Source: an uncultured bacterium
GTDB taxonomy: Bacteria; Fidelibacterota; Marinisomatia; Marinisomatales; UBA1611
Length of the DNA: 40,123 nt
Assembly: GCA_963980675.1 (NCBI GenBank)
Contig: CAXCBH010000001.1
Span: 1-40,123, forward strand
Direction: 5' to 3'
In this document: positions 13,038 to 39,463 of the stretch, in pieces
Numbering within the stretch: the first letter of the stretch is position 1
Layout of the letters: every line of letters starts with the position of its first letter
Position numbers and translations under genes: made by a program
Notes under the pieces: generated by a model
Told to the model about the DNA's origin: nothing
Seen by the model: only the letters and a program-made list of their open reading frames with translations
Databases searched by the model: none

Positions 13038-13038
13038 T

Positions 13039-14151: not shown

Positions 14152-14226
14152 TTTTATACTAACACAATATTATTTAATCACAAAGTTCACTAACAATTTC
14201 ACGTTTAACAACTGTGATTTGTGTGT

Positions 14227-20178: not shown

Positions 20179-23100
20179 ATGTTAAATAAATATCTGTTAC
20201 CCACATCTCTTTTTATCCTTTTAACAGTGACGAGTTGTTCAACATTTCCTAGAACTCAAGATTCTACAAATTGGGCAGAAAAAACTTTGAGTCAATTATC
20301 TCTCCGGGAAAAAATAGGGCAAATGATGGTCTACCGGATGAACATGCGGTTAAAGGATGTATCTTTAGAAAAGTGGAAAGAAATAAATTCTCTTATAGCA
20401 TCAGATGGTATTGGGACGATACATCTATGGTATGGTGACGCTAGCAGTTCCATAGCATTGATGAATAAAATGCAAACACTTTCAAAAGTGCCTATTTTAT
20501 TTGATGCAGACATTGAGTATGGTCTTAATCAAAGATTCCCTTCTGGGACAGACTTACCACCACTTATGGCCATTGCAGCTACTTCGAATACTAACAATTC
20601 TTATCAGGTTGGAAAAATAATTGCTAAAGAGGCGCGGGCAGTGGGCGTTCATTGGAATCTCTCTCCTGTAGTTGATGTGAATAATAATCCCTTAAATCCT
20701 ATTATTAATACGAGATCCTTTGGAGAAAATCCAAACGGCGTTAGCGAATTTGGTTTTTCTCTCATGAAAGGACTCCAAGATCACGGAATGTTGGCGACGG
20801 CAAAACATTTTCCCGGCCATGGGGATACAGAAACCGATTCTCATTCTTCTTTGGCCACGATTCCCAGTGATTCAAGCCGCCTATGGTCTGTTGAAATTTT
20901 ACCCTTTCAAGTCATGTCAGATGCAGGCGTAGATGCTATAATGGTGGCCCATGTTCATGCACCGGATTATCAACCTGAAGCAGATAAACCATCATCAATG
21001 TCACCATTTTGGATACAATCTATTCTACGAGAAAAAATTGGTTTCAAAGGTGTTGTAATTACTGATGCAATGAGTATGGGGGGTATATCAAAAAATTATT
21101 CTGATGCATTTGCTTTGATAGAAACGATTAAAGCGGGAAGTGACGTCATTATTCAAAACTATAATTTAAAAGGCTCTATAGATACCATTGAAAAAGCTAT
21201 TAATGATGGAGAAATTTCAATTCATCGAATCAATGGATCGGTATTAAAAATACTAAAAATGAAAGAAAAGGTTGGTCTTCAAAAATCTACTAAAATATCA
21301 TTAGATAGTTTTCATAATAGTTATAATAAAAATGAGCATAAACAAATTGCCAAACAAATTGCCCAAGAAGCAATAACATGTGTGAAATACGATTCGAATA
21401 TATTTCCATTTAATACAAATAATCCGGAGACACTTTATGTAATTGATATCTATGATTCCAGAAATAATCATGAAATGTCTAGTGTAACAAAAGGGCTTAA
21501 AAAATCAAGGCTCAAAATAAAAACCCTTCAAATTGACGAATCTGATTCAAAAGTTGTTTTAGATGCCATGCTAAATGAAATCCCAGAAAATGCCTTGGTA
21601 CTGGTAAATGCTTTTGCCAATCCAAAAGCGAGTAAAGATCGGATATTTCTTCCAGAGAATGAGTCAGAATTCCTTCGCACTTTAATGAATAAAACAGATC
21701 GTATTGTCCTTGCGAGTCTCGGGACACCTTATTTGATTCAAGAATTCCCAGGCATCCCGGTTTATCTTTGTGCCTATAAGAATAATTCTGTCATGCAGTC
21801 TGCGCTAGTGAATGCATTGCTGGGGAAGAATAAAATATCCGGAAAACTTCCTGTTTCAATTCCAGGGGTAGCAAAGTTTGGAGATGGTTTAGTGGTAGAA
21901 AAACAAGAAATTCAAATACAAAAGAATGGAAACTTGCCAGGGCCCAAAATAATTCAGGTGATGCCGGGTGAAATTGGTATAAGTAACAAGAAATTAAATC
22001 AATTATTAGAAGAATCAGTTAAGAACGAGGCTTGGCCCGGTGGTGTTTTACTTGCCGCAAAGGATGGAAAAATATTTGCAAAAGAAGCGTTTGGATTTCA
22101 CACCTATGATAAAAAAAGGGAAACAAGAACAAGTGACATTTTCGATCTAGCATCAATTACAAAAGTGATTTCAACAACTTCTGCTATCATGAAATTAGTC
22201 GAAAATGAAAAATTAAATCTCGATGATCCAGTTGTGAAATATTTGCCGGATTTCAAGGGGAAGCAGATTAAGTATTTTGATCAAAAGTCAAAAATCACTA
22301 TCCGTTACTTAATGACACATACTGCTGGGTTGGCCCCGTTTAAGCAATTTTATTTAATGGAAACAAGTAAAGAAGGGCGATTAGATAGTTTATATAATAG
22401 TGAGCCGGAAACAAAGATTGGTGAGAAAGTAGTTTATTCTGATATCGGTCTTATTATGCTAGGGAAATTAGTAGAGAATGTAAGTGGTGTTTCTTTAGAT
22501 AAATACGTCGACTCACTTATTTTTCAACCTATGGGTATGATATCTACATTTTATAATCCACCAAAAGAAAAATTTCACCGAATTGTTCCAACAGAAATTT
22601 CTGACCAATATAGAATAGGGTTAATACATGGAGAAGTCCACGATGAAAATGCCCATAGCATTGGTGGTGTGGCAGGGCATGCTGGCCTTTTCTCTACAGC
22701 CCGAGATTTAGCACGATTTTCTCAAATGATGCTGAATAAGGGTATTTATGGTTGGACCAGAATTTTCAAAACAGAAACGGTAAACCTATTTACACAAAGA
22801 GCCAATATTGTGGAAGGAAGTTCCCGTTGTTTGGGTTGGGATAGTCCAGATGGTGAAGCATCTGGTGGAGTATATTTAAGCGATAAAAGTTTTGGACACA
22901 CTGGATATACAGGAACATCCTTATGGATTGATCCGGAGAACCAGATTACAGTTATTTTGCTAACAAATGCGGTTCATCCTAATCGTTCTTGGAAAAAACC
23001 AAAATATTTTGACTGGCGACAGCGTATTCATTCTGCGGTTTATGAGACACTAGGATTTAAAGAACAGAATCAAAATTTTCAGTGGCGAAAAAATTGGTAA
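20179..23100 (+). CDS. Fusion lipoprotein: GH3 N-terminal (NagZ-like) domain plus C-terminal beta-lactamase/PBP-like serine hydrolase
   Basis: 973 aa. Lipobox LLTVTSC. GH3 motif KHFPGHGDTETDSH and VITDAMSMGG in the first half. SxxK motif ASITKV and a downstream YSD in the last ~370 aa. Confidence 0.85.
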   Translation: MLNKYLLPTSLFILLTVTSCSTFPRTQDSTNWAEKTLSQLSLREKIGQMMVYRMNMRLKDVSLEKWKEINSLIASDGIGTIHLWYGDASSSIALMNKMQTLSKVPILFDADIEYGLNQRFPSGTDLPPLMAIAATSNTNNSYQVGKIIAKEARAVGVHWNLSPVVDVNNNPLNPIINTRSFGENPNGVSEFGFSLMKGLQDHGMLATAKHFPGHGDTETDSHSSLATIPSDSSRLWSVEILPFQVMSDAGVDAIMVAHVHAPDYQPEADKPSSMSPFWIQSILREKIGFKGVVITDAMSMGGISKNYSDAFALIETIKAGSDVIIQNYNLKGSIDTIEKAINDGEISIHRINGSVLKILKMKEKVGLQKSTKISLDSFHNSYNKNEHKQIAKQIAQEAITCVKYDSNIFPFNTNNPETLYVIDIYDSRNNHEMSSVTKGLKKSRLKIKTLQIDESDSKVVLDAMLNEIPENALVLVNAFANPKASKDRIFLPENESEFLRTLMNKTDRIVLASLGTPYLIQEFPGIPVYLCAYKNNSVMQSALVNALLGKNKISGKLPVSIPGVAKFGDGLVVEKQEIQIQKNGNLPGPKIIQVMPGEIGISNKKLNQLLEESVKNEAWPGGVLLAAKDGKIFAKEAFGFHTYDKKRETRTSDIFDLASITKVISTTSAIMKLVENEKLNLDDPVVKYLPDFKGKQIKYFDQKSKITIRYLMTHTAGLAPFKQFYLMETSKEGRLDSLYNSEPETKIGEKVVYSDIGLIMLGKLVENVSGVSLDKYVDSLIFQPMGMISTFYNPPKEKFHRIVPTEISDQYRIGLIHGEVHDENAHSIGGVAGHAGLFSTARDLARFSQMMLNKGIYGWTRIFKTETVNLFTQRANIVEGSSRCLGWDSPDGEASGGVYLSDKSFGHTGYTGTSLWIDPENQITVILLTNAVHPNRSWKKPKYFDWRQRIHSAVYETLGFKEQNQNFQWRKNW

Positions 23101-23168: not shown

Positions 23169-26100
23169 ATGAAATTTATTAGAATCTTAACTTTATTTAT
23201 CGTTCTTCAATCTTCCCTATTCCCAAGTGTTACAGGCAAAATATCTGGTATAATTACAGATGCTTCGTCCGGTAACCCTCTTATTGGTGCCAATGTAATG
23301 CTTGATGGGACATCTCTTGGGGCTGCAACAGACATCGATGGGCACTATAACATTTTAAATATCTCTCCTGGGTTTTATTCGTTGCGTGTTGAGATGATAG
23401 GCTATGGTCAAAAAACGGTTACTGATATTCGTGTTGAAATTGATTTAACTGCATTAATCGATGTCGAACTTTCTGTTGAGGCTATTTCGGGCGAAATGGT
23501 TGTTGTAAAGGCAAATCAAAAGCTAGTTAAAATTGACGTGGCATCGAGTCAAAAATCAATATCAGCATCACAAATTGCTGAAATGCCTGTCAGTAGTGTT
23601 GCTGATGTTGTTGGGCTGTCTGCAGGGGTCTCTGGTTTGTCAGTGAGAGGTGGTAGTTACAATGAAACTCAATTTATGGTTGATGGTCTTGTGATGAATG
23701 ATGAACGAACGAGTGAACCTACAACGGGAATTCCTTTAAGTGCCATCCAAGATATTTCCTTGCAAACTGGCGGATTTGGTGCAGAATATCGGAATGCTCG
23801 ATCAGGTGTCATTAATGTTGTAACAAAAGAAGGGTCAAAAGATTCTTATTCTGGCTCGTTAAGTATTCGACAATCACCGGCAACACAAAAACATTTTGGG
23901 ACATCTCCTTACGATGCTGAATCTTTCTGGTTTAAACCATACTTGGATTCAACTGTTTGTTGGACAGGAACGAACAATGGTTCTTGGGATGAGTATACTC
24001 AAAGACAGTATCCATCTTTTGATGGGTGGAACAGTGTTTCTGAACAAACCTTAGCTGATGGTGATTCCAAAAATGATTTATCACCATCAGGCGTTAAAAA
24101 ATTATTTTCTTGGGAGCATCGAAAAAATGGAGCAATCAAAAATCCTGATGTGAATATTGATGCGGGGTTTGGAGGTCCGGTTCCCTTTGTTTCAACAAAA
24201 CTAGGTGATCTTCGTTTTTATTTTTCTACTCGGCAAGAAAAAGATATGTACCTTTATGAAGTCAGCAGAAAGGGACTTGAGAAGGAATCGTATTTATTAA
24301 AATTAACATCTGACTTAAGTGTTAATTCAAAACTTGTATATACTTTATTTAATGGTCGAGTTGAGGGAACATCCTTATCTCGAGGTGGCGGTACAGCGAT
24401 TATGAATGATGTTTGGGACCTTGCAAATCAAGTTAATAGGTCAGGATTTACAATGCCGTGGAGGTTATTTACAAATGAATACTGGTCTCCCACTGAAGTG
24501 AAAAATTCAATACATGGATTAAAGTTTACAAAGCAAATCGATGGTGATACTTTTTATGATTTATTGGTAAAGTATGATACCAAGGATTATAACACAAACC
24601 ATGGTGCACGTCGAGATACTATCTCGACTTTTCCTATTTTTGGTGATGGAGAAGATACTTGGTATGCAGATGAAGCTCCCAATGGTTTTTTTGGAGGGCC
24701 TCTTTTCAGTGTAGAGGGAAGGCTTGCATTTGGTGGAGCAGTTAGTACTGCTAGGGACTTTAGCCATGTGAAAACGATTACGCTAAAAGGTAACTACACA
24801 ACTCAGTTAAATAATGTAAATCAATTAAAATTTGGTGGAGAATTAATCTACTCTGGGCTCGAATTAAAATATGGGTCACAAAATGAATTTTTACCTAGCG
24901 GTAATTATTGGTCAACGATGGATGTGGCCCCGTATCGTTTATCATTTTACGGCCAAGATAAATTGGAATTTAAAGGACTTATTGCCATCCTTGGATTAAA
25001 CCTAGACGTAATTAATCCAAATCATGCCTGGTATGACATTGACGTCTATAATGATGATTTTTATTCATCTAATTACACTAGTGATTCAGAAGCTGATTTT
25101 GAGCAAACAAACGTTGACCCGCAAATTGAGTTAAGTCCGCGATTAGCATTGTCTCATCCTATAACTGAAACATCTAAATTATATTTTAATTATGGACACT
25201 ACCAACAAATGCCTATTGCTGAATCATTATATCGTGTTAGACGAGGATTTAGTGAAGAAGTGCTTACCATAGGTGACCCAAACCTTCCTATGGCTAAAAC
25301 GATCGCTTATGAAATTGGATTCGACCAATCTTTTAATGAAAGTTATTTAATTAGATTATCTGCTTACTATAAAGACATCGCTGACCAACAAAATTATACA
25401 CGATTTATCAGTGCAAATAGTAAAGTAAACTATTCAAGGTTAACATCAAATAGCTACGAGGACATTCGTGGATTTGAATTGGAGTTATCACGAATCCGTG
25501 GTCGTTGGGTTACTGGATTTGTGAATTATGAATATCGAGTAAATACATCTGGTTACTTTGGTTTAGGATATTATTATGAGAATCCAGCAGATCAGCGGAA
25601 TTATGAGCTGAATAATCCTAAACAATATAAACCAAGGCCTATTCCTAGAATGAAGTCTGTTATTGACGTTCATACACCAGTTGATTTCGGACCTAAATTA
25701 TTAAATCAGCGAATACTGGCAGATTGGCATTTAAACATAATTAGTAAGTGGTCTGCTGGCTCATGGTTTACTTATAATCCAAACAATGTTTCAGGAATTG
25801 AGTATAATGTTCAATATCGAAATAATTATAATATTGATTTGAAATTTTCTAAAATTTTTCAAATGGGTAAGGTGAATTTGAAAATCTATGCTGATTTATA
25901 CAATGCAATGAATGTGAAGACTTTTTCCGGATATGGTTTTGAAGATGGGTTTGACTATAATTACTACATGCAATCCTTGCACATGAATGAAGATATTTCA
26001 GGAGAATTAGGGTATAATTACTTTGATGGTAATGATATGCCTGGAGATGTACGAAAAGATGGAACAGAGTTTGTTCCTTTTGAGTGGATATCTGATGTAA

Positions 26101-26321
26101 CACAATTATCATCCCCAAGCGAAAGGCCCATTTATTTTGATTCAGCATCAGACTCATTTGTACAGTGGACTGAAGAAGAAGGATGGGCTGCAGTAAATCA
26201 ATCATTATATGATGATGTGATCGCAAATAAGCAATATATAGATATGCCTAACCTATCTCATTATATTTTTCTAAATCCTCGTGATATCTTTATTGGAATA
26301 AATATTAGTTATGATTTTTAA
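23169..26321 (+). CDS. TonB-dependent outer-membrane receptor with an N-terminal CarboxypepD_reg-like domain (module 1)
   Basis: 1050 aa. Signal peptide, then GKISGIITDASSGNPLIGANV...DGHYNILNISPGFYSL (CarboxypepD_reg), a plug region (QFMVDGLVMND...GGFGAEYRNARSGVINVVTKEG), and a C-terminal aromatic residue (ISYDF). Confidence 0.9.
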   Translation: MKFIRILTLFIVLQSSLFPSVTGKISGIITDASSGNPLIGANVMLDGTSLGAATDIDGHYNILNISPGFYSLRVEMIGYGQKTVTDIRVEIDLTALIDVELSVEAISGEMVVVKANQKLVKIDVASSQKSISASQIAEMPVSSVADVVGLSAGVSGLSVRGGSYNETQFMVDGLVMNDERTSEPTTGIPLSAIQDISLQTGGFGAEYRNARSGVINVVTKEGSKDSYSGSLSIRQSPATQKHFGTSPYDAESFWFKPYLDSTVCWTGTNNGSWDEYTQRQYPSFDGWNSVSEQTLADGDSKNDLSPSGVKKLFSWEHRKNGAIKNPDVNIDAGFGGPVPFVSTKLGDLRFYFSTRQEKDMYLYEVSRKGLEKESYLLKLTSDLSVNSKLVYTLFNGRVEGTSLSRGGGTAIMNDVWDLANQVNRSGFTMPWRLFTNEYWSPTEVKNSIHGLKFTKQIDGDTFYDLLVKYDTKDYNTNHGARRDTISTFPIFGDGEDTWYADEAPNGFFGGPLFSVEGRLAFGGAVSTARDFSHVKTITLKGNYTTQLNNVNQLKFGGELIYSGLELKYGSQNEFLPSGNYWSTMDVAPYRLSFYGQDKLEFKGLIAILGLNLDVINPNHAWYDIDVYNDDFYSSNYTSDSEADFEQTNVDPQIELSPRLALSHPITETSKLYFNYGHYQQMPIAESLYRVRRGFSEEVLTIGDPNLPMAKTIAYEIGFDQSFNESYLIRLSAYYKDIADQQNYTRFISANSKVNYSRLTSNSYEDIRGFELELSRIRGRWVTGFVNYEYRVNTSGYFGLGYYYENPADQRNYELNNPKQYKPRPIPRMKSVIDVHTPVDFGPKLLNQRILADWHLNIISKWSAGSWFTYNPNNVSGIEYNVQYRNNYNIDLKFSKIFQMGKVNLKIYADLYNAMNVKTFSGYGFEDGFDYNYYMQSLHMNEDISGELGYNYFDGNDMPGDVRKDGTEFVPFEWISDVTQLSSPSERPIYFDSASDSFVQWTEEEGWAAVNQSLYDDVIANKQYIDMPNLSHYIFLNPRDIFIGINISYDF

Positions 26322-28461
26322 ACGATTATTTTTTATTAGTTTATTTTTATACACGATTAATTTTGCTCAAGAAGTGAAGTGGATGGCAATTGGTGATCTT
26401 CATAATTGGTATTCAGCTGCAGGGTGTGAAATTGAAGTTGGTAGAACAGGACAAGTATCAGATCAGCAAGATGGCCTGCGTTATCCAGCTTTTTATCGAG
26501 TACAAGACAACCAAGCTGCAAAAGGTCTTTGGTTAGGTGCGACGAATTTTCATGATCCCATCGTATCTAAAGATTATGAATATAAAGTTGTGCATGCGGG
26601 GCCTAGGCATTTGGATATTGAGAATGAAACTATACCAAAGGAAATTTCTTTGCATGGTAGGTATGGTCACCCCAATGTTTTTGTTGATGGTGATCCGGCA
26701 ACTAATCTTCAATATCTTGATAATGTTGATGAAGTTGATCCGGATTTGCCAGCTGATAGGAAAATTTATAATGTTGTCCAAACGTCCATTGGTGTTGAAA
26801 TGCAAAGAACCATTTATGCATTTTCTCATCCTGAACACCAGAATTATCATATCCAAGAATATGTATTTACAAATAATGGCTGCTACGATGCAGATTGTAA
26901 TACGAGCTACGAGCAGACCCTTGAAGGGTTTCAAGTCTATTTACAGTATAGATACGCTATTAGCAGGGAAGGTATGGTTTATGATGGGGGCTGGTTACCC
27001 CAGAGCGCAGCATGGGGTCATAATACAATGAATGATGTTATCGGAGAAAATCCAGATGCACCCTCAGGAAATGATCAATACTACGATGATGGGGAAATCA
27101 TTCGAGGCTTGTTCTCTTGGCAAGGGTATCACTCAGATGCCAGTTTTGATAATATTGGTGGCCCAAATTCACCAGGTGAAGGTCACTTAGGTGCTGCTCA
27201 ATTTGTAGGTGTTACAACCCTCCATGCTGATACAAGCCCTGCTGATAATACCAATGATTTAAATCAGCCAAGTACAACTTGGTTCATTACTTCGGATGAT
27301 CCTTCTACATCTGGTAATGATCAATATAATGAAACAAAGTCAAGGAAAGAGTATAATCAATATATGTCTGTAGGACACCCTGAACAATCCCAAGCAGAAG
27401 TGGTTGGAACGGGCTATGCCAATCAATTTGCAGATCCAAGAGCTGGTTCAAATCCTGGTGGAACGTCTCAAGGAATTGGCTTTGGTCCCTATACCTTAGC
27501 ACCGGGCGAAAGTATTAGAATTGTTCTTGCTGAAGGTGCAGCAGGTTTAAGCCGCGAAATGTGTTATCTTGTTGGCCAAAATTGGAAGAATGATATCCAT
27601 ACAGGAGATATGCCGGCACCATCATCCTTGAATACATGGATGATGGAGCATTACAATGGTGGGTCTGGAAAAAATGAATATAAAAATGCGTGGGTTTTTA
27701 CAGGTGCAGACTCCATTGTAAAAACATTTAAAAAAGCAAAAGAAACATTCGATTTGATGGAGTCAGGGCAAACATTGCCGTTTCCACCTCGACCGCCAGC
27801 TATTTTCACAGTAACATCAGGTGGTGATCGAATTACAATTGACTGGTCAGCTGAATCTGAATCTGAGCCTGGAATGGACGGGTATAATCTATATCGGTTA
27901 AAATTTAAACCAGATACATCCTTATTTTATTATGATTTAGCTAATGGCAACATTGTGGACCTAGATGAATCTATTGCTTCAATTTGGACTTTAGATCCTG
28001 GCATTGGTTCTTATGAAGATTTAACTCCTGAACGAGGATTTGATTATTACTATTTTTTGGAAGCATTTGATAATGGTACAAACGATAATATTGTTTTAAA
28101 TAGTAGCAAATTTTATACACTGACTAATAAAGCAGCTTTCCTTAAACGTCCACCTGGAACAAGCTACAGTGATATTCGTATAGTACCAAATCCCTTCCAC
28201 ATATCCGCCAGAGACTTACAATATGGAGTGAGCGCACCTGATCGATTGATGTTTTTAAATATCCCTGCTAAATGTACTATCCGAATATTTACAGAAAGGG
28301 GTGACTTGGTTGATACAATTGAGCATACAGATGGAAGTGGGGATGAAGCTTGGAATTCAATTACTTCATCAAGGCAGATTATTGTTAGTGGACTTTATAT
28401 TGCACATTTTGATATGGGATCAGAAGGATCTGAAATTCGTAAATTCACAGTAATAAGATAG
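26311..28461 (+). CDS. Uncharacterised secreted TBDR-partner protein: novel N-terminal region, FN3-like domain and T9SS-CTD-like C-terminal beta-sandwich (module 1)
   Basis: 716 aa. Its ATG overlaps the TBDR stop by 11 nt. Has a signal peptide, an FN3-like segment (PPAIFTVTSGGDRITIDWSAE...GYNLYR), and a paralog at 34540..36684. Confidence 0.85.
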   Translation: MIFKRLFFISLFLYTINFAQEVKWMAIGDLHNWYSAAGCEIEVGRTGQVSDQQDGLRYPAFYRVQDNQAAKGLWLGATNFHDPIVSKDYEYKVVHAGPRHLDIENETIPKEISLHGRYGHPNVFVDGDPATNLQYLDNVDEVDPDLPADRKIYNVVQTSIGVEMQRTIYAFSHPEHQNYHIQEYVFTNNGCYDADCNTSYEQTLEGFQVYLQYRYAISREGMVYDGGWLPQSAAWGHNTMNDVIGENPDAPSGNDQYYDDGEIIRGLFSWQGYHSDASFDNIGGPNSPGEGHLGAAQFVGVTTLHADTSPADNTNDLNQPSTTWFITSDDPSTSGNDQYNETKSRKEYNQYMSVGHPEQSQAEVVGTGYANQFADPRAGSNPGGTSQGIGFGPYTLAPGESIRIVLAEGAAGLSREMCYLVGQNWKNDIHTGDMPAPSSLNTWMMEHYNGGSGKNEYKNAWVFTGADSIVKTFKKAKETFDLMESGQTLPFPPRPPAIFTVTSGGDRITIDWSAESESEPGMDGYNLYRLKFKPDTSLFYYDLANGNIVDLDESIASIWTLDPGIGSYEDLTPERGFDYYYFLEAFDNGTNDNIVLNSSKFYTLTNKAAFLKRPPGTSYSDIRIVPNPFHISARDLQYGVSAPDRLMFLNIPAKCTIRIFTERGDLVDTIEHTDGSGDEAWNSITSSRQIIVSGLYIAHFDMGSEGSEIRKFTVIR
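28168..28458 (+). other. T9SS C-terminal-sorting-domain-like / FlgD-Ig-like segment of the 716-aa protein
   Basis: IRIVPNPF...LMFLNIPAKCTIRIFTERGDLVDTIEH...DEAWN...VSGLYIAHF...RKFTVIR follows the (V)PNP(F/Y) ... I.I(F/Y)...G.LV ... W.. ... SG.Y pattern of Por_Secre_tail-type domains. Confidence 0.5.
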
Positions 28462-28465
28462 CGGT

Positions 28466-29275
28466 ATGAATAAAAATAATTACAAACTAAATCTCACACT
28501 TATGGCGCTGATAATAGTTGGTTGCGATGATTTAACAAAAGATTATCAGAGTAATGAAAAATATCCATTGGCAATTGATAATACAATTTGCGAAATATTA
28601 AATGAAAAGGAATCAAATACAGTCATCACTTTTACCCCAGATTCTCTCTCTATGATTGCAATTTATGATAGTTTGATTACTGACACAGTGTCTTTTGCAG
28701 TTCTCAGTAATTCAAATAATTGGAAAATTCCTATTGATTCATTAACCTATTTTATGGTCTATGCACCTCAAACTGCAGATTCTTATTATGTGGCTTTAAA
28801 CTCATCAAGTGAATTTGGTTTATTTTCCGCAAGTGGTGAAGAAGTAATGCCAGACCAGACAATTTCATCTATGGTAAATATTGCAGGTTGTTCCGATATA
28901 AGAGTTAGGTATACATATTCATCCTTGAATGGCGTTTATTTAGCCCGACTGGTGAATTCAAATGTTTCATCAGTTAAAATGGTATTTATGAATTCAAATT
29001 CTATACCTGCTGCAGGATTTTCTGTTTCACCTGTATTAGCTGCGGTTGGTGACACACTCACTTTTTCCGAATCTTCATCAAGTGGATCTTATCCAATTGT
29101 TATCTTTTCATGGGATTTTGATGATGGGACTTCAAGCGATGATTCATCTATTGTAGAACATGTTTATTCAGATTCTGGCTCTTTTTCACCTTCATTGACT
29201 GTCTCTGATGGATATTTATCCCATTCAGTCACTCAAACCAGCTTGATTACAATTAGTGGCGGGAGTGAAGAATAA
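28466..29275 (+). CDS. Lipoprotein with a C-terminal PKD domain
   Basis: 269 aa. Lipobox LIIVGC. PKD signature FSWDFDDGTSS...VEHVYSDSGSFSPSLTVSDG. Confidence 0.8.
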   Translation: MNKNNYKLNLTLMALIIVGCDDLTKDYQSNEKYPLAIDNTICEILNEKESNTVITFTPDSLSMIAIYDSLITDTVSFAVLSNSNNWKIPIDSLTYFMVYAPQTADSYYVALNSSSEFGLFSASGEEVMPDQTISSMVNIAGCSDIRVRYTYSSLNGVYLARLVNSNVSSVKMVFMNSNSIPAAGFSVSPVLAAVGDTLTFSESSSSGSYPIVIFSWDFDDGTSSDDSSIVEHVYSDSGSFSPSLTVSDGYLSHSVTQTSLITISGGSEE

Positions 29276-30261
29276 TGAAAAATATAAAATACATATTCAC
29301 CTTTGTTTTAATAGTTACTATATCATTTGGATCTGAAAATAAAAAATTGGCTCAAACTGGGTTTCAATTTTTAAGTGTTTCAGCAGATGCAAGAGGCGGA
29401 GGAATGGGAGATGCAATGACAACTATTTTTGGTAATTCATCTTCTTTATTCTTTAATCCTGCTGGAATGTCTAGACAAAAACAATTAATTGATTTTAATT
29501 TTAGCTCAAACGAATGGATTGCAGATATTTCTTATGAAGCATTCAGTATGTCAGTTAGCCCGAAAAATGGTTTATATGGTGTTTTTGGGTTCACCATGCT
29601 GAATGTGGATTATGGAGAATTACAAGGGACGATGGTCTGGGATAATGAACAGGGTTTCATTGATACAGAAATATTTAAACCAACAGCTCTCTCACTTGGG
29701 TTTGGGTATGGCCGCGCATTATCGGAAAATTTTTCTGTGGGTGCCCATGTAAAAAAAGCGTATCAAAACCTAGGGTATAATGTTGTCCCAGCAACAGATA
29801 CATCAAAAATTGTCCAAAAAAATACTGCTGATGCCATTGCTTTTGATTTTGGTACTATTTATGAAACAGATTGGCATGGCTTTTCATTTGGAATGTCTGT
29901 TCGAAATTTTAGTGATGAAACTCAATTTTCATATGATGGATTTCAACTCCCATTAACATTTCGAATTGGTGGGTCATTGGAACTGCTTGGTTTCACACCT
30001 CTAGCTGACAAATCTCAATCGTTAGTGTTGGCATTAGAGGCACTTCATCCACGATCATACCCAGAAAGAATGAATATTGGATTGGAATATTCATTTATGA
30101 GGATAGCAAACCTCCGAATGGGCTATTTATATAATTATGATGAACGAGGCCTAACCTATGGCGGTGGAGTGAAAATTGGTCCCCTTTCTATCGATTATGC
30201 TTTAACTCCCTTTGGAATTTTTGACAACGTCAGTAGAGTAAGTATTGGAATTTCAAAATGA
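29275..30261 (+). CDS. PorV/PorQ-family outer-membrane beta-barrel (T9SS-associated)
   Basis: 328 aa. After the signal peptide, LAQTGFQFLSVSADARGGGMGDAMTTIFGNSSSLFFNPAGMS matches the conserved PorV/PorQ N-terminal motif as recalled. The rest alternates beta-strand-like segments. Confidence 0.7.
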   Translation: MKNIKYIFTFVLIVTISFGSENKKLAQTGFQFLSVSADARGGGMGDAMTTIFGNSSSLFFNPAGMSRQKQLIDFNFSSNEWIADISYEAFSMSVSPKNGLYGVFGFTMLNVDYGELQGTMVWDNEQGFIDTEIFKPTALSLGFGYGRALSENFSVGAHVKKAYQNLGYNVVPATDTSKIVQKNTADAIAFDFGTIYETDWHGFSFGMSVRNFSDETQFSYDGFQLPLTFRIGGSLELLGFTPLADKSQSLVLALEALHPRSYPERMNIGLEYSFMRIANLRMGYLYNYDERGLTYGGGVKIGPLSIDYALTPFGIFDNVSRVSIGISK

Positions 30262-31478
30262 AGAATGCACTTAATATAAATCAAAATATATCCATTGGGC
30301 TTTTATTAATAATATTTTCTTGTGAAGATCCAAACTATCCAAATGATGTTTGGGATGAAGAAGATATAGGAAATGCAACACCAATAGTCACTGGGGTTGT
30401 CCCAGCAGATGGAGCATTTGCAGGAATTGATACAATCATTATTTCAGGTCAATATTTTTCACTTTCTTTTTCTGAAAATCTTGTTTATTTCAATGGCATG
30501 TTAGGGAATGTAGTTAATGCAACATCAACTGCATTATCAGTCGTTCCTCCAAATCTGGTTAGCGATAGTGTCACGGTTAAAGTAGCAGTACAAGGTGCAT
30601 TCGTATTTGGTGAACTTGATGGTTTCTACCGGTTGACTGCCGCTGTTCAGGAATATGGCCCTTTTGATCAGTTTACTGATATTTACTCCTTAGATTTGGA
30701 TTTAAGTGAAAATCTATATGTGTCAATGGATGGTTCTCCTAATGCAGAATTTTGGATGGTGAATTCAGATGGAGATTCATCAGTATGGTCTGGCGCGTTG
30801 GCCAAGGGAGCTGGAATGAAAATTGGCCCTACAGGAAGTATTTATTATGTGAACTTTCAACGATATCTTTACAAAGATGAACAAAATACTCCAAAAGAGA
30901 ATACTGAAATATTTAAACGATTAAATGGAAATGCCACAGATCTGGATTTTGATGCGAATGGAAACCTTTTTGTCGGTGGAACGGGTTCTGTAATTGATGT
31001 CGTCAATATTTATGATGAAGGAGGGATTACATCAGGTGTAACTGAAGTGAAAGACTTGGGAGATCTTAATGTGGTTAATCTAAGAGTATATGGAGATCAT
31101 GTCTATATTCTAACTTCGAACACAACTTCTGAAAAAGTTATTTATAGATTACCAATTTTAGATACAGCTGGCACCTTGGGTGATTTAGAAGTTGTTTATG
31201 ATTGGTCTGTAAATATTATTGATGCAACAGCATTATGTTTTACACTAACATCATCTGGCGATTTATTAATAGGATCTGATTCTGAAACTGACCCGCTTGT
31301 TTTGGTTAAAGATGGGGTAGCTTCCGGATTCTATTCTTCTGTTCTTGTTCCCCCGATTAGTTATATGGCTTGGGGTAATGCTGAATTTCTCTATTTAATT
31401 AATAAAACTGATGAGACAAATAGAGTACAGAAAATTGATACAAGGATGGATGGTGCAGGCTATTATGGTCGGCCGTGA
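30258..31478 (+). CDS. Lipoprotein with an N-terminal IPT/TIG domain and a beta-propeller-like body
   Basis: 406 aa. Lipobox LIIFSC. PIVTGVVPADGAFAGIDTIIISGQYFS...LVYFNG is IPT/TIG-like. Repeated DxxGNLxV-type blade motifs follow (DANGNLFVGG, SSGDLLIGS). Confidence 0.75.
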   Translation: MKNALNINQNISIGLLLIIFSCEDPNYPNDVWDEEDIGNATPIVTGVVPADGAFAGIDTIIISGQYFSLSFSENLVYFNGMLGNVVNATSTALSVVPPNLVSDSVTVKVAVQGAFVFGELDGFYRLTAAVQEYGPFDQFTDIYSLDLDLSENLYVSMDGSPNAEFWMVNSDGDSSVWSGALAKGAGMKIGPTGSIYYVNFQRYLYKDEQNTPKENTEIFKRLNGNATDLDFDANGNLFVGGTGSVIDVVNIYDEGGITSGVTEVKDLGDLNVVNLRVYGDHVYILTSNTTSEKVIYRLPILDTAGTLGDLEVVYDWSVNIIDATALCFTLTSSGDLLIGSDSETDPLVLVKDGVASGFYSSVLVPPISYMAWGNAEFLYLINKTDETNRVQKIDTRMDGAGYYGRP

Positions 31479-31494
31479 TTGATGACTCTCTTTC

Positions 31495-34400
31495 ATGTCG
31501 ATAATTATTCGATCCCTTAAACTTAACTTATTACTTTTTTTCTTTTTTTATAATTTATTATTTCCCGGCACGACGGGGAAAATATCTGGCATTGTTCGTA
31601 ATATTGAAACTGAAGACCCATTAATCGGTGTTAATGTTGCTCTCGTTAGTACTCCTTTCGGTGCTGTTACTGATGAGACTGGTAGGTTTACACTCCTGAA
31701 TATTCCACCTGGTAATTATCAAATCCAAGCCAGTATGATGGGGTACTCAAAATATTTGATCAATGATTTAAGTGTGGGAATTGATCAAACAACTCAAATC
31801 AATATTCCAATGTCTCAAGAGTCTATTAAAATGAAAGAAGTCATTGTTCAAGCGAGTAAACCCATTATTCAATTGGATATTTCTAATAGCCAGTTTAATG
31901 TTAGTTCAGATGAAATAATATCATTACCAATAGATGAAATATCTGATATTCTTGACTTACAAGCAGGTGTGAATGGTTTAAGTATTAGAGGCGGGGGCAC
32001 AAGAGAATCTTTATTTCGTGTTGATGGATTTTCTTATAACGATGAAAGATCTAATATTCCATACACATCTATTCCAATCGGAATTATTAAAGAAATTCAA
32101 GTTCAAACAGGTGGCTTTAATGCAGAATATGGGAATATTCGTTCTGGAGTCATAAATGTTGTTTTGGCTGAAGGTGATAAAAATAAGGTTCATGGTGGAA
32201 TTACTTTCAGACATAGTCCCCCTACCCAGAAACATTTTGGCAATTCATTGTATTCAAGTGATTCATATTTTTTCCGTCCATTTCTAGATAATAATGTTTC
32301 TTGGGTTGGTACTGAAAATGGGAATTGGGATGCATACACAAGACGACAATATCCTTCTTTTGAAGGGTGGAATGCTGTTGCAGATGCAACATTACAGGAC
32401 GATGACCCTTCTAATGATCTTACACCTGCGAGTGCACAACAAATTTTCAAATGGCAACACAGGCGTAATGGTATTATCCAACATCCTGATGAAAATATGG
32501 ATTTATTTGTTTCAGGTCCAGTCCCCTTTGTATCGGAACTGGCAGGGAATCTTCGCTTTCTATTTAGTTATCGCAAAGAAAATGAAGCATTTATTTTTCC
32601 ATTATCCTATAAAGATTTTAAAGATAATTCTTGGTTGCTAAAGCTCACATCTGATTTCACAAAAAAAACTAAGATCAATTTTTCTCTTCAAAAGGGGCAG
32701 ATTCAATCTGTTTCCCCATATTCTTGGAAAACAACTCCAACGGGAACTTATTTACGCACATCTTATGAAGTAGCAAATCTCCTGAATGGTTCTTCTGGTA
32801 ATAGCATGTTATTTATGCCGGGTTATTACTCTCCTACCTTAATAAATAGATCAATTATTGGGATCAATTTGACTCACATGTTTTCTGAAAAAAAGTACCT
32901 AGAATTTTCCATCCAATATCAGTCTAATGATTATAATACTTTTCAAATGGAATTAAGGGATACAACAAAAACATATAAAATTATTCCCGGTTCGAATGAA
33001 TTAAAATTAGATGAGGCTCCATTTGGATATTGGGGATATGCTGAGACAGGTATTGATGGTATGGGGATTGGTGGTTGGATGAATCTTGGAAGAGATGAAT
33101 CAGTTAATTCAACCACAATTATTGATGTTGATTACATTAGCCAAATTGGAAATAATCACCATATTAAAAGTGGTGTAGGTGCTATACTCAATTCATTTAA
33201 AATAAGGTCTTTCACAGAAAGTCCCAGCATGTCTACTTGGAATCGATCAATGATTTATGACACTTCGCCATATAGATTATTTGCATATATTCAAGATAAA
33301 ATTGAGTATAAAGGATTCATTTCAAATATTGGAATCCGCAGTGATATCTCCAGCGGGAATTCGGATATTTATGATTTAGGCGAATATGATGATTATTTCA
33401 AACAGGGGAATGGCCACGATATTGAAGAAAATGTACCGTCCGCAATATCAAAACCAATTCATGCAATTAGTCCGAGACTAGGGATTTCTCATCCTATCAC
33501 AGATAAATCAAAATTATATTTTAATTACGGACATTTTTATTCTGAACCTTCTTCATCTTATCGTTTCAGATTACAAAGGGAAAGTAATGGGTTAGTGACT
33601 CATATTGGTGACCCTGGAATGGAATTTGAAAAAACCATTGCTTATGAAACAGGGTATTCATCAGATTTATTAGGACGCTTGTTATTGAATGTGGCTTTGT
33701 ATTATAAGGATATTACCAATCAACCGGGATGGGTTTATTATCAAAATATGAATGGGACGGTTCAAGTTAATCGAATTGAGAGTAATAATTATGAAGATAT
33801 TCGAGGTCTTGAGATTACCTTAAATAAAAAATTGGGTAATTGGATAACGGGTATGGTGAATTATACCTACCAAGTTGAATCTTCAGGATATTTTGGATTA
33901 TTAAAACAATTCCAAGATCCAAATGTGCAGCGAGATTATGAGAGTTTAAATCAATATCAGTCAAAACCACGGCCCAGACCTTATTTAAAAGCTGTTGCTC
34001 ATATTAGATCACCAAATAATTTTGGTCCTAAAATTTTTGGTCAATCCGTTTTTGGCAATTGGGCATCCAGTTTCATATATAAATATAATTCCGGTGGATT
34101 TGAAACATATAATCCACAAAACCTGCCTGGCGTGTCAAATAATATTCAGTGGAAAGATAATTATACTACGGATGCACGTTTTTCAAAAAAAATACAATTA
34201 AAAGAAACAACACTTGAATTTTTATTAGATGTAAAAAATTTATTTAATAATAAGTTTATTAGCTATGCGGGGTTTGCAGATTATTATGATTATATCGATT
34301 ATTTAGAATCATTGAGATTCTCATGGGAAGAAGGAAAGGAGAGGGGAGATGATAGAATTGGCGAATACAGAGCTTGGGATATTGATTATCAGCCATATGA

Positions 34401-34539
34401 ACCTGAAGATTGGCAAAATCCAACAGCAGAAGAGCAAGAGATACTAGACTCAAAAGCTTATATTGATATGCCAAATATCCGATCGGTAAGTTTTCTCAAT
34501 CCACGTGATATTTACTTTGGAATATCAGTGTATTTTTAA
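31495..34539 (+). CDS. TonB-dependent outer-membrane receptor with a CarboxypepD_reg-like domain (module 2, paralog of 23169..26321)
   Basis: 1014 aa with the same architecture as module 1 and clear alignable blocks, for example GKISGIVRN..DPLIGVNV, GGFNAEYGNIRSGVINVV and RHSPPTQKHFG...YPSFEGWN. C-terminal ISVYF. Confidence 0.9.
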   Translation: MSIIIRSLKLNLLLFFFFYNLLFPGTTGKISGIVRNIETEDPLIGVNVALVSTPFGAVTDETGRFTLLNIPPGNYQIQASMMGYSKYLINDLSVGIDQTTQINIPMSQESIKMKEVIVQASKPIIQLDISNSQFNVSSDEIISLPIDEISDILDLQAGVNGLSIRGGGTRESLFRVDGFSYNDERSNIPYTSIPIGIIKEIQVQTGGFNAEYGNIRSGVINVVLAEGDKNKVHGGITFRHSPPTQKHFGNSLYSSDSYFFRPFLDNNVSWVGTENGNWDAYTRRQYPSFEGWNAVADATLQDDDPSNDLTPASAQQIFKWQHRRNGIIQHPDENMDLFVSGPVPFVSELAGNLRFLFSYRKENEAFIFPLSYKDFKDNSWLLKLTSDFTKKTKINFSLQKGQIQSVSPYSWKTTPTGTYLRTSYEVANLLNGSSGNSMLFMPGYYSPTLINRSIIGINLTHMFSEKKYLEFSIQYQSNDYNTFQMELRDTTKTYKIIPGSNELKLDEAPFGYWGYAETGIDGMGIGGWMNLGRDESVNSTTIIDVDYISQIGNNHHIKSGVGAILNSFKIRSFTESPSMSTWNRSMIYDTSPYRLFAYIQDKIEYKGFISNIGIRSDISSGNSDIYDLGEYDDYFKQGNGHDIEENVPSAISKPIHAISPRLGISHPITDKSKLYFNYGHFYSEPSSSYRFRLQRESNGLVTHIGDPGMEFEKTIAYETGYSSDLLGRLLLNVALYYKDITNQPGWVYYQNMNGTVQVNRIESNNYEDIRGLEITLNKKLGNWITGMVNYTYQVESSGYFGLLKQFQDPNVQRDYESLNQYQSKPRPRPYLKAVAHIRSPNNFGPKIFGQSVFGNWASSFIYKYNSGGFETYNPQNLPGVSNNIQWKDNYTTDARFSKKIQLKETTLEFLLDVKNLFNNKFISYAGFADYYDYIDYLESLRFSWEEGKERGDDRIGEYRAWDIDYQPYEPEDWQNPTAEEQEILDSKAYIDMPNIRSVSFLNPRDIYFGISVYF

Positions 34540-36684
34540 ATGTCAAATTCTATTTTATTACGAATATTTTTTATAATTTTACCAATTCTGGTTTCTAGTC
34601 GAGTTGATGAAACATTAAAACGGTATATTAAGGTTGGTTCTCTACAAAGTCACTTTTCTGCCTATGGAAGTGAGAGAGCTTGGAATAATACCTACTATGA
34701 GGGCCTTATCTGGCCTGCGGATTATTTATACCAAGATAATTCTGTTATTAAAAGGACTTGGATTGCCACTAAAAATTTTACAGATGATCAAGGGTATTTA
34801 TGGGGTCACTATGGTGTGTACCTGCTTCTCAGTGATAACCAGGTTGGGACAAGTATTTTTCCAATGGAATTATATCAGATTGCAAAATTTATGCCACCCA
34901 CTGTTTATGTTGATGGTACCGATATTAATAGTTTCTATAATGCTCAAATAGATTCAGTTAATAGTGAAATTCCTTCTGATAGAATTGTTGTAAACAGGGT
35001 GAATACATCTATGGGGTTAACTATGGAACGGCGTATTTTTGCTTTTAGTCAGCAATATCATGATAATTATTTTATTAAAGTATTTACATTTACCAATACA
35101 GGAAATACGGATTGGGATGATGAAATTGAACTCACCAGTGATTTAGATGGTGTCGTGGCTGGCTGGGGTCCTCGCTACAGTTTACCAAGAGAAACCGGTA
35201 ACCGATTGGATGGTCAACAATCTTGGGGGAAAAACTCTTGGGTTACCATTCGTGGGGAAGATTATGCGGATAATTATTTAATGCCTATTACTGAAGATGA
35301 CCCTAGCCCTCAATGGCTAAGGTCTGTATTTCAATGGTATGGTCGCTCTGCAACTGTTTCACAGGTAAATACAATTGGGGGACCTTATTATCAAGGAAAT
35401 GGCCGATTAATGTCTCCGCACCATGCTGGCATGGGAGTAATTCATGTTGATATGGATTGGGGTGATTCCACAAATGATATTCATCAACCTTTATTTATGG
35501 GGTGGCACGCAGGTGATACCTATCCATCCATTGGTAGTTTGTCCCCATCTGCAGAACCATCTATGGCAAATCTTTACGATATGTTATCCGGAATACCTTT
35601 TCTGGGCTTAGGTGGTGCAGAACGTATTGATGAAATAGCTATGGGAGACCCATCCTCAGACACGTACTTGAACCACAATATAAAACCATTTGATATGCAC
35701 AATGATGCAGGAGGAATGAATGCAATGGTGACTTATGGTCCATTTGATATTCCGCATGGAGAAAGTGTGACGATTGTTGAAGTGGAAGGCATTAATGGAA
35801 TTAACCGCACAATGTGTGAAGAAATAGGACTTGAGTGGGATAAAGGTAGTCCTCCATTTATTTTACCTGATGGGTCTGAAACTGCCAATAAGGATATATT
35901 TAAAAATTCCTGGGTTTTTACGGGTAAAGATTCAATTTTGAAGACATTTGGACGAGCCTATAGGAATTATAATTCTGGATTTCAAATTCCATCTCCACCT
36001 TTACCACCACCATTATTTGATGTACAATCTGGCGGTGATAGAATATTTTTAAAGTGGGAACCAAGTGGAACAGAATTTGAGTCATCTTTTTCGGGATATG
36101 AAATTTGGAGAGCACCGGGAAAAGCTGACACCATCTATACTCAAGTCTATTCTGGTGCAAAAGGGACGTATTCATTTGATGATCTCACAGCGAAAAGAGG
36201 AATTTCTTATTATTATTATATTCAATCTGTGTCAAATGGTTCAAATAACCAATCCGGCGAACTCAACCCAACAGGACCTTTAAAGAGCAGCCGTTTCTAT
36301 ACAAAAACATCAAAGCCAGCTTATCTTAGAAGGAAATCCGGGGATGCCCTTAGAGATATAAGGATTGTTCCTAATCCGTATCATATCGCAGCAAAGGATT
36401 ATCAATATACTGGTGAAAAAGATAAAATAATGTTTCTGAATATTCCTGGACAATGTGACATAAGAGTTTTTACCGAAAGAGGTGATCTTATCCATCATAT
36501 TTCCCATAATGACGGTAGCGGGGACGAGGCTTGGAACTTGGTAACATCGGGACGACAAGTTGTAGCTCCCGGAATATATTTAGCTCATATATTGGTATCA
36601 TCAAACATCCTATCAATAGACCAGGAAAACGTTATAATTCGCAAGGGGGATAGTAGAGTTTTAAAGTTTGCTGTTATTCGGTAA
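34540..36684 (+). CDS. Uncharacterised secreted TBDR-partner protein (module 2, paralog of 26311..28461)
   Basis: 714 aa. Its ATG directly abuts the TBDR stop (TAAATG). Shares blocks with the 716-aa protein (NSWVFTGKDSILKTF; PPLFDVQSGGDRIFLKWE; IRIVPNPYHIAAKD...IMFLNIPGQCDIRVFTERGDLIHHISHNDGSGDEAWN). The CTD-like tail is about 36349..36681. Confidence 0.85.
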   Translation: MSNSILLRIFFIILPILVSSRVDETLKRYIKVGSLQSHFSAYGSERAWNNTYYEGLIWPADYLYQDNSVIKRTWIATKNFTDDQGYLWGHYGVYLLLSDNQVGTSIFPMELYQIAKFMPPTVYVDGTDINSFYNAQIDSVNSEIPSDRIVVNRVNTSMGLTMERRIFAFSQQYHDNYFIKVFTFTNTGNTDWDDEIELTSDLDGVVAGWGPRYSLPRETGNRLDGQQSWGKNSWVTIRGEDYADNYLMPITEDDPSPQWLRSVFQWYGRSATVSQVNTIGGPYYQGNGRLMSPHHAGMGVIHVDMDWGDSTNDIHQPLFMGWHAGDTYPSIGSLSPSAEPSMANLYDMLSGIPFLGLGGAERIDEIAMGDPSSDTYLNHNIKPFDMHNDAGGMNAMVTYGPFDIPHGESVTIVEVEGINGINRTMCEEIGLEWDKGSPPFILPDGSETANKDIFKNSWVFTGKDSILKTFGRAYRNYNSGFQIPSPPLPPPLFDVQSGGDRIFLKWEPSGTEFESSFSGYEIWRAPGKADTIYTQVYSGAKGTYSFDDLTAKRGISYYYYIQSVSNGSNNQSGELNPTGPLKSSRFYTKTSKPAYLRRKSGDALRDIRIVPNPYHIAAKDYQYTGEKDKIMFLNIPGQCDIRVFTERGDLIHHISHNDGSGDEAWNLVTSGRQVVAPGIYLAHILVSSNILSIDQENVIIRKGDSRVLKFAVIR

Positions 36685-39431: not shown

Positions 39432-39452
39432 GGGGCCATCTGGCCCCTTTTT
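39432..39452 (+). terminator. Rho-independent terminator
   Basis: GGGGCCA-TC-TGGCCCC is a GC-rich 7-bp stem followed by TTTTT, 32 nt after the stop of the 855-aa gene. It is preceded by an A-run, so it could act in both directions. Confidence 0.7.
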
Positions 39453-39463
39453 AGTTTATAGAT

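Follow-up and report, generated by a model that had tools for sequence, protein, structure and literature searches.

A conserved gene cluster of TonB-dependent receptors, cognate partner proteins and a PorV-family barrel in Fidelibacterota and related phyla

Organisation of the gene cluster

A DNA stretch of 40,123 nucleotides (hereafter the window), representing positions 1 to 40,123 of contig CAXCBH010000001.1 (assembly GCA_963980675.1) from an uncultured bacterium of the phylum Fidelibacterota, was found to carry a plus-strand gene cluster for two TonB-dependent receptors, each followed by a partner protein of about 715 residues, together with two lipoproteins, an outer-membrane barrel of the PorV/PorQ family and a protein with a type IX secretion system (T9SS) sorting domain. 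In the list of open reading frames (ORFs), the first seven genes are those for the type-1 receptor (1050 aa; 23169..26321), the type-1 partner P716 (716 aa; 26311..28461), a small PKD lipoprotein (269 aa; 28466..29275), the PorV/PorQ-family barrel (328 aa; 29275..30261), a TIG lipoprotein (406 aa; 30258..31478), the type-2 receptor (1014 aa; 31495..34539) and the type-2 partner P714 (714 aa; 34540..36684). Reading of the junctions indicated an 11-nt overlap at 26311/26321, TAATG at 29273-29277, ATGA at 30258-30261 and TAAATG at 34537-34542, the other gaps among the seven genes being 4 and 16 nt. An earlier description made from the letters alone (the sequence-only reading) had placed seven plus-strand ORFs at these positions with the same overlaps and gaps, and both the ORF list and the junctions agree with it. 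It had also described two diverged receptor/partner modules, tightly packed and co-oriented; this was borne out by the finding that the two receptors (38% identity) and the two partners (34% identity) are paralogues over their full length.

An eighth gene (36833..39400, plus strand) encodes an 855-aa NHL beta-propeller protein, which bears a T9SS sorting domain of type A. The terminator scan detected no terminator-like hairpin in any intergenic gap between 23169 and 39400. A hairpin beyond 39400 was missed by this automated scan and was identified by eye: 3' of the NHL gene, the letters GGGGCC-ATCT-GGCCCC followed by TTTTTAGTTT, read straight from the sequence, form an intrinsic terminator on the plus strand at about 39432-39457, which is likely to be the 3' end of the transcription unit. 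The sigma-70 promoter scan was uninformative, with 77 sites detected against 80.6 expected. The conserved unit reaches past 36684 and runs through the NHL gene (36833-39400) to the terminator at about 39432-39457. The operon as first drawn is thus packed as described, but its end at 36684 was set too early, since the NHL gene belongs to the unit as well.

The NHL gene carries an exact tandem duplication (36902..39063, plus strand), in which 36902-37956 is identical to 38009-39063 over 1055 nt (100%; period 1107 nt). The propeller is doubled in frame, giving 855 aa against the 450-490 aa of relatives with a single unit. The repeat either arose by duplication only very recently or was created during assembly.

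The domain assignments of the sequence-only reading were reproduced by profile hidden Markov model annotation (Pfam and NCBIfam). The absence of SusD/RagB, of an extracytoplasmic function (ECF) sigma/anti-sigma pair and of a hybrid two-component regulator was likewise upheld, none of these being matched by profile scans in any large ORF of the window.

Receptors, partner proteins and T9SS-type components

The type-1 receptor is composed of a signal peptide, a CarboxypepD_reg-like N-terminal extension, the TonB-box-like motif GEMVVVKA, a Plug domain, a predicted large barrel and a final Phe. Against Pfam, CarbopepD_reg_2 matched the type-1 and type-2 receptors with 60.9 and 65.6 bits, and Plug (PF07715; cutoff 23.9 bits) with 30.5 and 29.2 bits, respectively. 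Both Pfam CarbopepD_reg and Plug were recognised in all of the 20 receptor homologues examined, and the barrel model OMP_b-brl_3 in five of the 20. The motifs GEMVVVKA and KEVIVQA (consensus GEEVxVVA), situated between the N-terminal extension and the plug, resemble TonB boxes by motif only. For the 22-strand barrel expected of a TonB-dependent transporter, partial matches to receptor-barrel models of NCBIfam were obtained for NF049944 (residues 630-790, E 1.7e-13) and for TIGR01783. With the SusC/RagA model TIGR04056, whose cutoff is 368.25, the receptors scored 58.9 and 46.9 bits, the match being limited to the N-terminus (residues ~24-165). When the receptor family profile was compared with PDB, only plug and N-terminal-extension sequences were matched, and no SusC barrel. 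As judged from these profiles, the receptors are predicted to have the import-type layout of extension, motif, plug and large barrel, and to stand outside the SusC/RagA family.

The partner proteins belong to a family that is poorly covered by existing models. No Pfam or NCBIfam family was matched by P716, and the sole family match of P714 was a weak fn3. Isolated C-terminal, FN3 and N-terminal pieces of the partner gave no usable match against Pfam at E = 10. Searches of PDB with both the single sequence and the family profile detected nothing for the N-terminal 490 residues, and weak FN3 matches only. As many as 1163 homologues of P716 were collected, of which those with names are called only 'hypothetical protein' or 'fibronectin'; the closest relatives (identity as high as 98%) belong to marine metagenomes and to metagenome-assembled genomes (MAGs) of Candidatus Marinimicrobia (SAR406/Fidelibacterota). 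An exact look-up of P714 in assemblies gave no record. An exhaustive profile search yielded 568 representatives of the family (50%-identity clusters) at E <= 1e-30. The partner has a signal peptide without a lipobox. Its assignment as a lipoprotein was considered and rejected: loose matches to a lipobox regular expression within the family appear to be due to a conserved internal AGC motif near residue 38 and not to a signal-peptide lipobox.

A confident AlphaFold2 (AF2) model of full-length P716 was obtained with pLDDT 79.8 and pTM 0.80. In this model, a beta-supersandwich (~20-412) is followed by a helical region (~413-486), an FN3 domain (~495-590) and a beta-sandwich (~621-716) of seven strands, which is a divergent likeness of the C-terminal domain (CTD) of T9SS cargo proteins as described below. 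Because the Foldseek search with the full-length model was dominated by FN3 tandems, the N-domain was modelled separately (pLDDT 82.7, pTM 0.89). At the level of fold, its Foldseek matches were the beta-supersandwich (galactose-mutarotase-like) domains of GH94 phosphorylases, GH116, GH65, dextran dextrinase, YidC-P1 and OpgG. The partner, which is beta-rich and lacks a lipobox, is not SusD-like.

By profile-profile alignment with hhalign, the last ~100 residues of the partner were matched to the Por_Secre_tail domains of the NHL family encoded nearby (95.8% probability, E 7.9e-9), and the positions of the PNPF and GxY motifs coincide. This CTD-like domain is the most conserved region of the partner. 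P716 and P714 share 60% of residues in the CTD-like domain but 30% in the N-domain; within the family, mean pairwise identity is 0.71 for the CTD-like domain against 0.57 for the rest. For the NHL family, used as a control, the corresponding values are 0.44 for the sorting domain and 0.46 for the body. As the strongest constraint is not expected for a signal that is cleaved and discarded, the CTD-like domain is suggested to be retained and functional.

In long relatives of the partner (1091-1580 aa), this N-module is joined to beta-helix/PMP or BNR/sortilin domains. A canonical Por_Secre_tail above cutoff was detected at the C-terminus of five of the eight long relatives sampled. Their genes are located in T9SS cargo gene arrays, not beside receptors. 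From these sequences, the receptor-coupled subfamily appears to have specialised from within a family of ordinary T9SS cargo. One such array (L085; 325-19632 of CAYPHA010000030.1) contains at least seven consecutive genes with Por_Secre_tail domains, among them one for a protein combining Cohesin, Dockerin and a T9SS sorting domain; the array also includes a 1235-aa long relative in which the partner N-module is fused to a beta-helix.

The 328-aa barrel matched the whole length of NF033709, the model of the PorV/PorQ family, with 181.3 bits (cutoff 90). It stayed below both equivalog cutoffs (NF033710 PorV, 80.5 against 250; NF033711 PorQ, 78.5 against 220), and its only PDB match was Flavobacterium johnsoniae PorV (6h3i_F, E 2.8e-7). 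On these scores, the barrel is assigned to a distinct paralogous subfamily of the PorV/PorQ family.

The 269-aa lipoprotein has the lipobox IVGC followed by DD, and a C-terminal PKD_4 domain (46.7 bits) that is a lineage-specific addition. Its N-terminal ~180 residues are homologous to an unnamed lipoprotein of ~200 aa, here called 'c0' (hhalign 99.9%, E 1.3e-35), which fills the same slot in 30 other loci. The PKD lipoprotein and the PorV/PorQ-like barrel of the sequence-only reading were both recovered by these matches. In the 406-aa lipoprotein, the lipobox IFSC is followed by EDPN, and an IPT/TIG domain was identified with 41.9 bits. The TIG domain and lipobox had been foreseen together with a propeller; the propeller was only assumed, as the C-terminal ~290 residues match no family in the profile scans and no PDB entry. 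This family is kept in the cluster across phyla, and the lipobox pattern was detected in 57 of 74 homologues. In both lipoproteins, acidic residues directly follow the lipid-modified Cys.

The sorting domain of the NHL protein scored above both thresholds (TIGR04183, 34.4 bits, cutoff 23; PF18962, 28.1 bits, cutoff 27). In most loci, the cluster is followed by a homologue of 450-490 aa. PorZ and PorU were matched by the NHL protein in the CTD only. The link to T9SS proposed beforehand is thus supported by the PorV-family barrel, by the alignment of the partner C-termini to T9SS sorting domains (at the hhalign value given above), by the NHL sorting domain above threshold and by the canonical Por_Secre_tail domains of long partner relatives. 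CTD proteins have been stated to be restricted to Bacteroidota in a review of T9SS effectors (PMC10202324). Type-A sorting domains above curated thresholds were observed here in Marinimicrobia, KSB1 and Calditrichota (window, 36833-39400; loci L001, L003 and L088).

Conservation and type-matched pairing across phyla

The surroundings of the cluster (10 kb on either side) were compared in 84 loci, 80 of which came from species-representative genomes and the remainder from four contigs encoding two distant homologues. In the species-representative genomes, 408 confirmed stretches were found. The order recurring in the 84 loci is receptor, partner, (small lipoprotein), PorV-like barrel, TIG lipoprotein and NHL protein with sorting domain; a second or third module of receptor and partner is often present. 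The loci are labelled as Marinimicrobia/Fidelibacterota, Melioribacteraceae/Ignavibacteriales, KSB1, Calditrichota, Delongbacteria, WOR-3 and 'Cytophagia', of which several 'Cytophagia' labels may be unreliable. The same order was found in the 5.03-Mb chromosome of Calditrichota GD2, a record without a MAG label. The conserved unit consists of six families, namely the receptor, the ~715-aa partner, the small lipoprotein, the PorV-family barrel, the TIG lipoprotein and the NHL/CTD protein. As the same gene order recurs in 84 loci of several phyla, the arrangement is far beyond chance, and a chance juxtaposition of genes was ruled out.

The taxonomic labels do not fit for two contigs with the cluster, in which partner identity to the window is 74-75%: L011 (PADI01000033.1, 'Methanobacteriota archaeon') and L012 (DEBM01000037.1, 'Balneolaceae bacterium'). 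Both are probably mis-binned in public MAGs.

The adjacency of receptor and partner, which had been named beforehand as a test, was conserved across phyla: among the 127 partner genes not cut by a contig end, the receptor gene lies directly 5' of the partner in 123, with a median gap of 13 nt. By subtype, 77 of the pairs are type-1 and 46 are type-2, and none is mixed. A PorV-like gene is present within two genes 3' of the type-1 partner in 69 of 85 cases. Since both types are orthologous across phyla, the duplication that gave rise to the two modules is ancient, and the strict type-matched pairing argues both for such an ancient duplication and for a specific physical partnership. From these relationships we infer that the duplication predates the spread of the system over these phyla, and that each receptor has co-diversified with its own partner. 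The strictness of this matching speaks for a partner that acts on its own receptor or together with it, as is the case for SusD, RagB or BtuG.

Proposed mode of action, flanking genes and substrate

We propose, with a probability of roughly 0.55, that the cluster, conserved in the Fibrobacterota-Chlorobiota-Bacteroidota (FCB) group outside Bacteroidia, encodes a TonB-dependent import machine without SusD, in which the surface partners would be delivered by T9SS and held by the cognate PorV-like barrel. Each TonB-dependent receptor would work with its own cognate ~715-aa partner. The two partners and the NHL protein, these three having CTD or CTD-like domains, would reach the cell surface through T9SS, with the PorV-family barrel of the operon as their cognate carrier or anchor, and the two lipoproteins by a separate route. 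The CTD-like domain of the partner is probably kept, not cleaved, and would dock on the PorV/PorQ-family barrel of the operon, or on the receptor, thereby holding the partner at the surface. The beta-supersandwich and FN3 body would then capture the substrate and hand it to the receptor for TonB-energised import, and the small 'c0'/PKD lipoprotein, the TIG lipoprotein and the NHL propeller may serve as further surface binding or processing subunits. Precedents for a retained CTD are known, as this domain stays on PorZ for binding to PorQ and on PorU for binding to PorV (PMC10202324). Type-B cargo proteins are encoded beside cognate PorP/SprF barrels, which have been proposed as anchors (PMC10202324). 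The system as proposed would be a functional analogue of the SusCD, RagAB or BtuBG complexes, made from unrelated parts.

With SusC/SusD polysaccharide utilisation loci (PULs), 'utilisomes', RagAB and BtuB-BtuG, the cluster shares a TonB-type barrel encoded immediately beside a cognate partner that is here predicted to lie at the surface, extra lipoproteins of a surface type within one operon, and multiple paralogous pairs. It also shares the CarboxypepD_reg-like N-terminal extension and the implied order of surface capture followed by TonB-energised import. It differs in that the receptor stands outside SusC/RagA and shows no SusC barrel by profile, and in that the partner is a beta-rich, T9SS-type protein without lipid anchor, whereas SusD is an all-alpha lipoprotein. 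Moreover, the core lacks a carbohydrate-active enzyme (CAZyme) and a regulator of the hybrid two-component system (HTCS) or ECF type, the GH3 fusion and GH18 genes (described below) being lineage-specific flanks; and PULs of the SusC/SusD type are hypervariable, whereas this system is highly conserved across phyla. The view that the cluster lies outside the canonical Bacteroidota definition of a PUL therefore stands, as it lacks a SusC-family receptor, SusD, core CAZymes and a regulator. In the chitin utilisation locus of Flavobacterium johnsoniae, the T9SS-secreted ChiA is encoded together with SusC/SusD-like pairs. That locus resembles the present cluster in using T9SS for the extracellular component of a TonB uptake locus and in its two receptor modules. 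There, SusD-like lipoproteins are kept and the cargo is an enzyme released in soluble form; here, the T9SS-type protein adjoins the receptor and has no recognisable enzyme domain. The CTD of ChiA is mentioned in the T9SS review (PMC10202324). As a general statement, replacement of SusD in lineages lacking SusD was rejected, because Melioribacter roseus has been reported to carry a true SusCDE locus (PMC3534657).

The second group of known systems to be compared consists of the T9SS attachment complexes. Likeness to PorZ-PorQ, PorU-PorV and type-B cargo with PorP/SprF lies in the PorV/PorQ-family barrel encoded beside CTD or CTD-like proteins. The CTD-like domain is strongly conserved, as is expected if it is retained for docking as in PorZ-PorQ and PorU-PorV, and the NHL propeller protein carries a CTD as PorZ does. 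On the other hand, the barrel reaches neither equivalog cutoff, and the CTD-like domain of the partner is missed by both type-A and type-B models. The described attachment complexes do not contain a TonB-dependent receptor, whereas here a receptor is associated and the organisms lie outside Bacteroidota. T9SS parts, that is, the PorV-family barrel and the CTD-like domains, are thus used in a context undescribed for T9SS and outside Bacteroidota. A third comparison is with Oar of Myxococcus xanthus, which is reportedly a TonB-dependent transporter of the CarboxypepD_reg type needed for secretion of PopC. The receptors here resemble Oar in their size of ~1000 aa, the CarboxypepD_reg N-terminal domain, the position outside the SusC family and the absence of SusD. 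For Oar, neither a cognate ~700-aa partner encoded next to it nor a PorV-like barrel nor any T9SS link is known, and for the present system import is proposed. The suggestion that no system of this architecture has been characterised is consistent with literature searches, in which no description of one was found, although this is not proof of absence.

Several observations weigh against the proposed import machine. The model PF00593 (TonB_dep_Rec) gave no match to the receptor barrel region, and the T9SS sorting-domain models of Pfam and NCBIfam missed the partner C-termini in direct searches, even at E = 10. The fold likeness of the partner N-domain is weak (TM ~0.3, ~10% identity) and holds at fold level only, and no catalytic or ligand-binding site was identified. 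Scans with Pfam and NCBIfam found no enzyme of known class in the conserved core. In Calditrichota GD2, the flanking genes are those for RelA, GreA and shikimate-pathway proteins. Partner identity across phyla is 45-55%, and such high conservation, together with these housekeeping flanks, is unlike typical substrate-specific PULs and would equally fit a structural or envelope role.

In a different explanation, the cluster is not a nutrient importer but a conserved surface assembly or secretion module, whose receptor-like barrels would export or anchor their partners, a structural layer or adhesin, or a lineage-specific extension of T9SS attachment of the PorQ-PorZ kind. Surface-protein sequences conserved to this unusual degree, the GD2 flanks and a core devoid of enzymes and regulators are all in line with it. 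The combination of a PorV-family barrel with a propeller carrying a CTD also parallels PorQ-PorZ (PMC10202324), and the other members of the partner N-module family are ordinary T9SS cargo encoded away from receptors. For TonB-dependent export itself, Oar provides a precedent. Nevertheless, the receptors have the standard layout for import, with plug and TonB-box-like motif, and a second export route appears unnecessary for partners that already carry a predicted export signal of the T9SS type. Two or three paralogous, type-matched modules per locus resemble diversification of specificity as in nutrient uptake, and the NHL matches to PorZ and PorU do not extend beyond the CTD. An assembly or secretion function is considered quite unlikely.

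Upstream of the cluster, the window contains a plus-strand gene (20179..23100) for a lipoprotein in which a GH3 NagZ-like domain is fused to a PBP4B/AmpH-like serine hydrolase. It matched Glyco_hydro_3 (265.6 bits) and Beta-lactamase (213 bits), whereas NF002968 (226.7) and NF003740 (166.6) were each below cutoff. As the gene lies 68 nt upstream of receptor 1 on the same strand, it may be co-transcribed with the cluster. Further upstream, a co-oriented minus-strand set (12138-19231) encodes an MBL-fold hydrolase, a NagX-like membrane protein (158 bits, below cutoff), a 610-aa SSF symporter, SpoIID/LytB, a 311-aa protein without family and a NagZ-like GH3 protein. This set looks like a salvage cluster for amino sugars or cell-wall fragments, and its SpoIID, 311-aa and GH3 trio is syntenic in close relatives. 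On the other side, a truncated GH18 gene (ChiD-like, with the DGADIDWEYP motif and a signal peptide; 39464-40123) starts 3' of the terminator and runs out of the window. The flanking enzymes listed in the sequence-only reading were mostly recovered, namely the GH3-PBP4B-like fusion, the second GH3 NagZ-like domain, SpoIID and GH18; the sugar kinase was not recovered, and the NagX-like and the 311-aa proteins were found instead.

From such flanks, it had been suggested that the cluster captures and imports fragments of peptidoglycan or chitin. In this reading, muropeptides or chito-oligosaccharides would then be processed by the products of the neighbouring GH3/NagZ-like, PBP4B-like, SpoIID, NagX-like, SSF-symporter and GH18 genes. 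The position between a divergent salvage-type cluster and GH18, close to the GH3-PBP4B-like lipoprotein, fits this reading. Linkage to the GH3 fusion (GH3-bla) was found in 11 of the 84 loci (six labelled Marinimicrobia and five 'bacterium' or 'uncultured bacterium'), which span partner identities of 46-82%, and in one rearranged locus (L016) the genes are still nearby. AmiA-like amidase genes were observed near four loci. Fidelibacter multiformis, the only cultured member of the phylum, lives on exogenous muropeptides, and this dependence has been traced to the ancestor of the phylum (PMC11652737). The fold class of the partner N-domain is common in carbohydrate-active enzymes, including chitobiose phosphorylase. 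GH3-bla linkage is missing in 73 of the 84 loci, including all those labelled Melioribacteraceae, KSB1 and Calditrichota and also several Marinimicrobia loci with 10 kb of upstream sequence; the GD2 flanks are of a different kind, and the GH18 gene stands beyond the terminator. The description of Fidelibacter makes no mention of TonB or outer-membrane uptake (PMC11652737), and outer-membrane uptake is not discussed in a paper on Marinimicrobia genome evolution either. By profile scans, the conserved core contains no LysM, CBM5/12, CBM50 or SPOR domain specific to peptidoglycan or chitin. The claim of peptidoglycan or chitin capture, resting on flanks in 11 loci, is thus not upheld for the system as a whole. 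Because the flanks are lineage-specific and the core lacks a specific domain, uptake of muropeptides or amino sugars is taken as a possibility at the level of the lineage, and an unlikely one, instead of the function of the system.

Other neighbours vary with the locus. A gene of the GHL10 family was observed downstream of the NHL gene in six loci (L026, L027, L040, L044, L045 and L048), labelled as Melioribacteraceae (two), KSB1 (one), 'Deferribacteres' (one) and unclassified (two). A LuxR-type regulator is adjacent in five loci. A corrinoid methyltransferase trio (URO-D-like, B12-binding and homocysteine S-methyltransferase) is located just upstream in ten loci, often on the same strand (L019, L021, L022, L025, L055, L056, L062, L064, L067 and L074).

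A further rival reading, which has the corrinoid genes in its favour, is that a peptide or protein, as in RagAB, or a cofactor, as in BtuB-BtuG, is taken up instead of a glycan. In Bacteroides, BtuG is a surface propeller lipoprotein that caps its receptor, and the present cluster includes both an NHL propeller protein and a surface-type lipoprotein. The core has no CAZyme, and the carriers include lineages described as peptide fermenters (Caldithrix; PMC5317091). However, no Rfam family, and hence no cobalamin or other riboswitch, reached the gathering threshold in the window or in five of the loci that have corrinoid enzymes encoded nearby, so that a role in cofactor uptake is weakened. The core has no peptidase either; the receptors, with ~1000 aa and an N-terminal extension, are unlike BtuB; and the corrinoid genes accompany only ten of the 84 loci. 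We regard uptake of a peptide or cofactor as very improbable. For the import machine proposed here, our leading guess of the substrate is a glycan or an oligomer containing amino sugars, and the fold class of the partner together with the fusion partners of its long relatives (beta-helix, BNR) leans weakly towards glycans.

SAR406/Marinimicrobia and their relatives of the FCB group are abundant, but most have yet to be cultured, and little has been learned of the way in which substrates cross their outer membrane. The present cluster encodes an outer-membrane system that is deeply conserved over several phyla, with a protein family without a Pfam or NCBIfam model at its centre. It is also a candidate for such uptake in the phylum of which the sole isolate needs imported muropeptides. 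As a tentative and rather doubtful extension, it may represent a third way of surface-capping a TonB-dependent transporter in SAR406/Fidelibacterota, Calditrichota, KSB1 and Ignavibacteriota, phyla of the FCB group that are dominant in parts of the ocean and of the subsurface, with a T9SS-delivered cap that, unlike SusD, RagB or BtuG, is not a lipoprotein and whose sorting domain has been repurposed as a permanent domain for docking on a PorV-family barrel. If so, type IX secretion would be physically coupled to TonB-dependent import. Should the proposed mechanism hold, the principle of a receptor plus surface cap would no longer be limited to lipoproteins of the SusD type, a new role outside Bacteroidota would be added for T9SS sorting domains and PorV-like barrels, and a concrete marker would become available for the reading of TonB-receptor signals of these phyla in ocean metaproteomes and metatranscriptomes.

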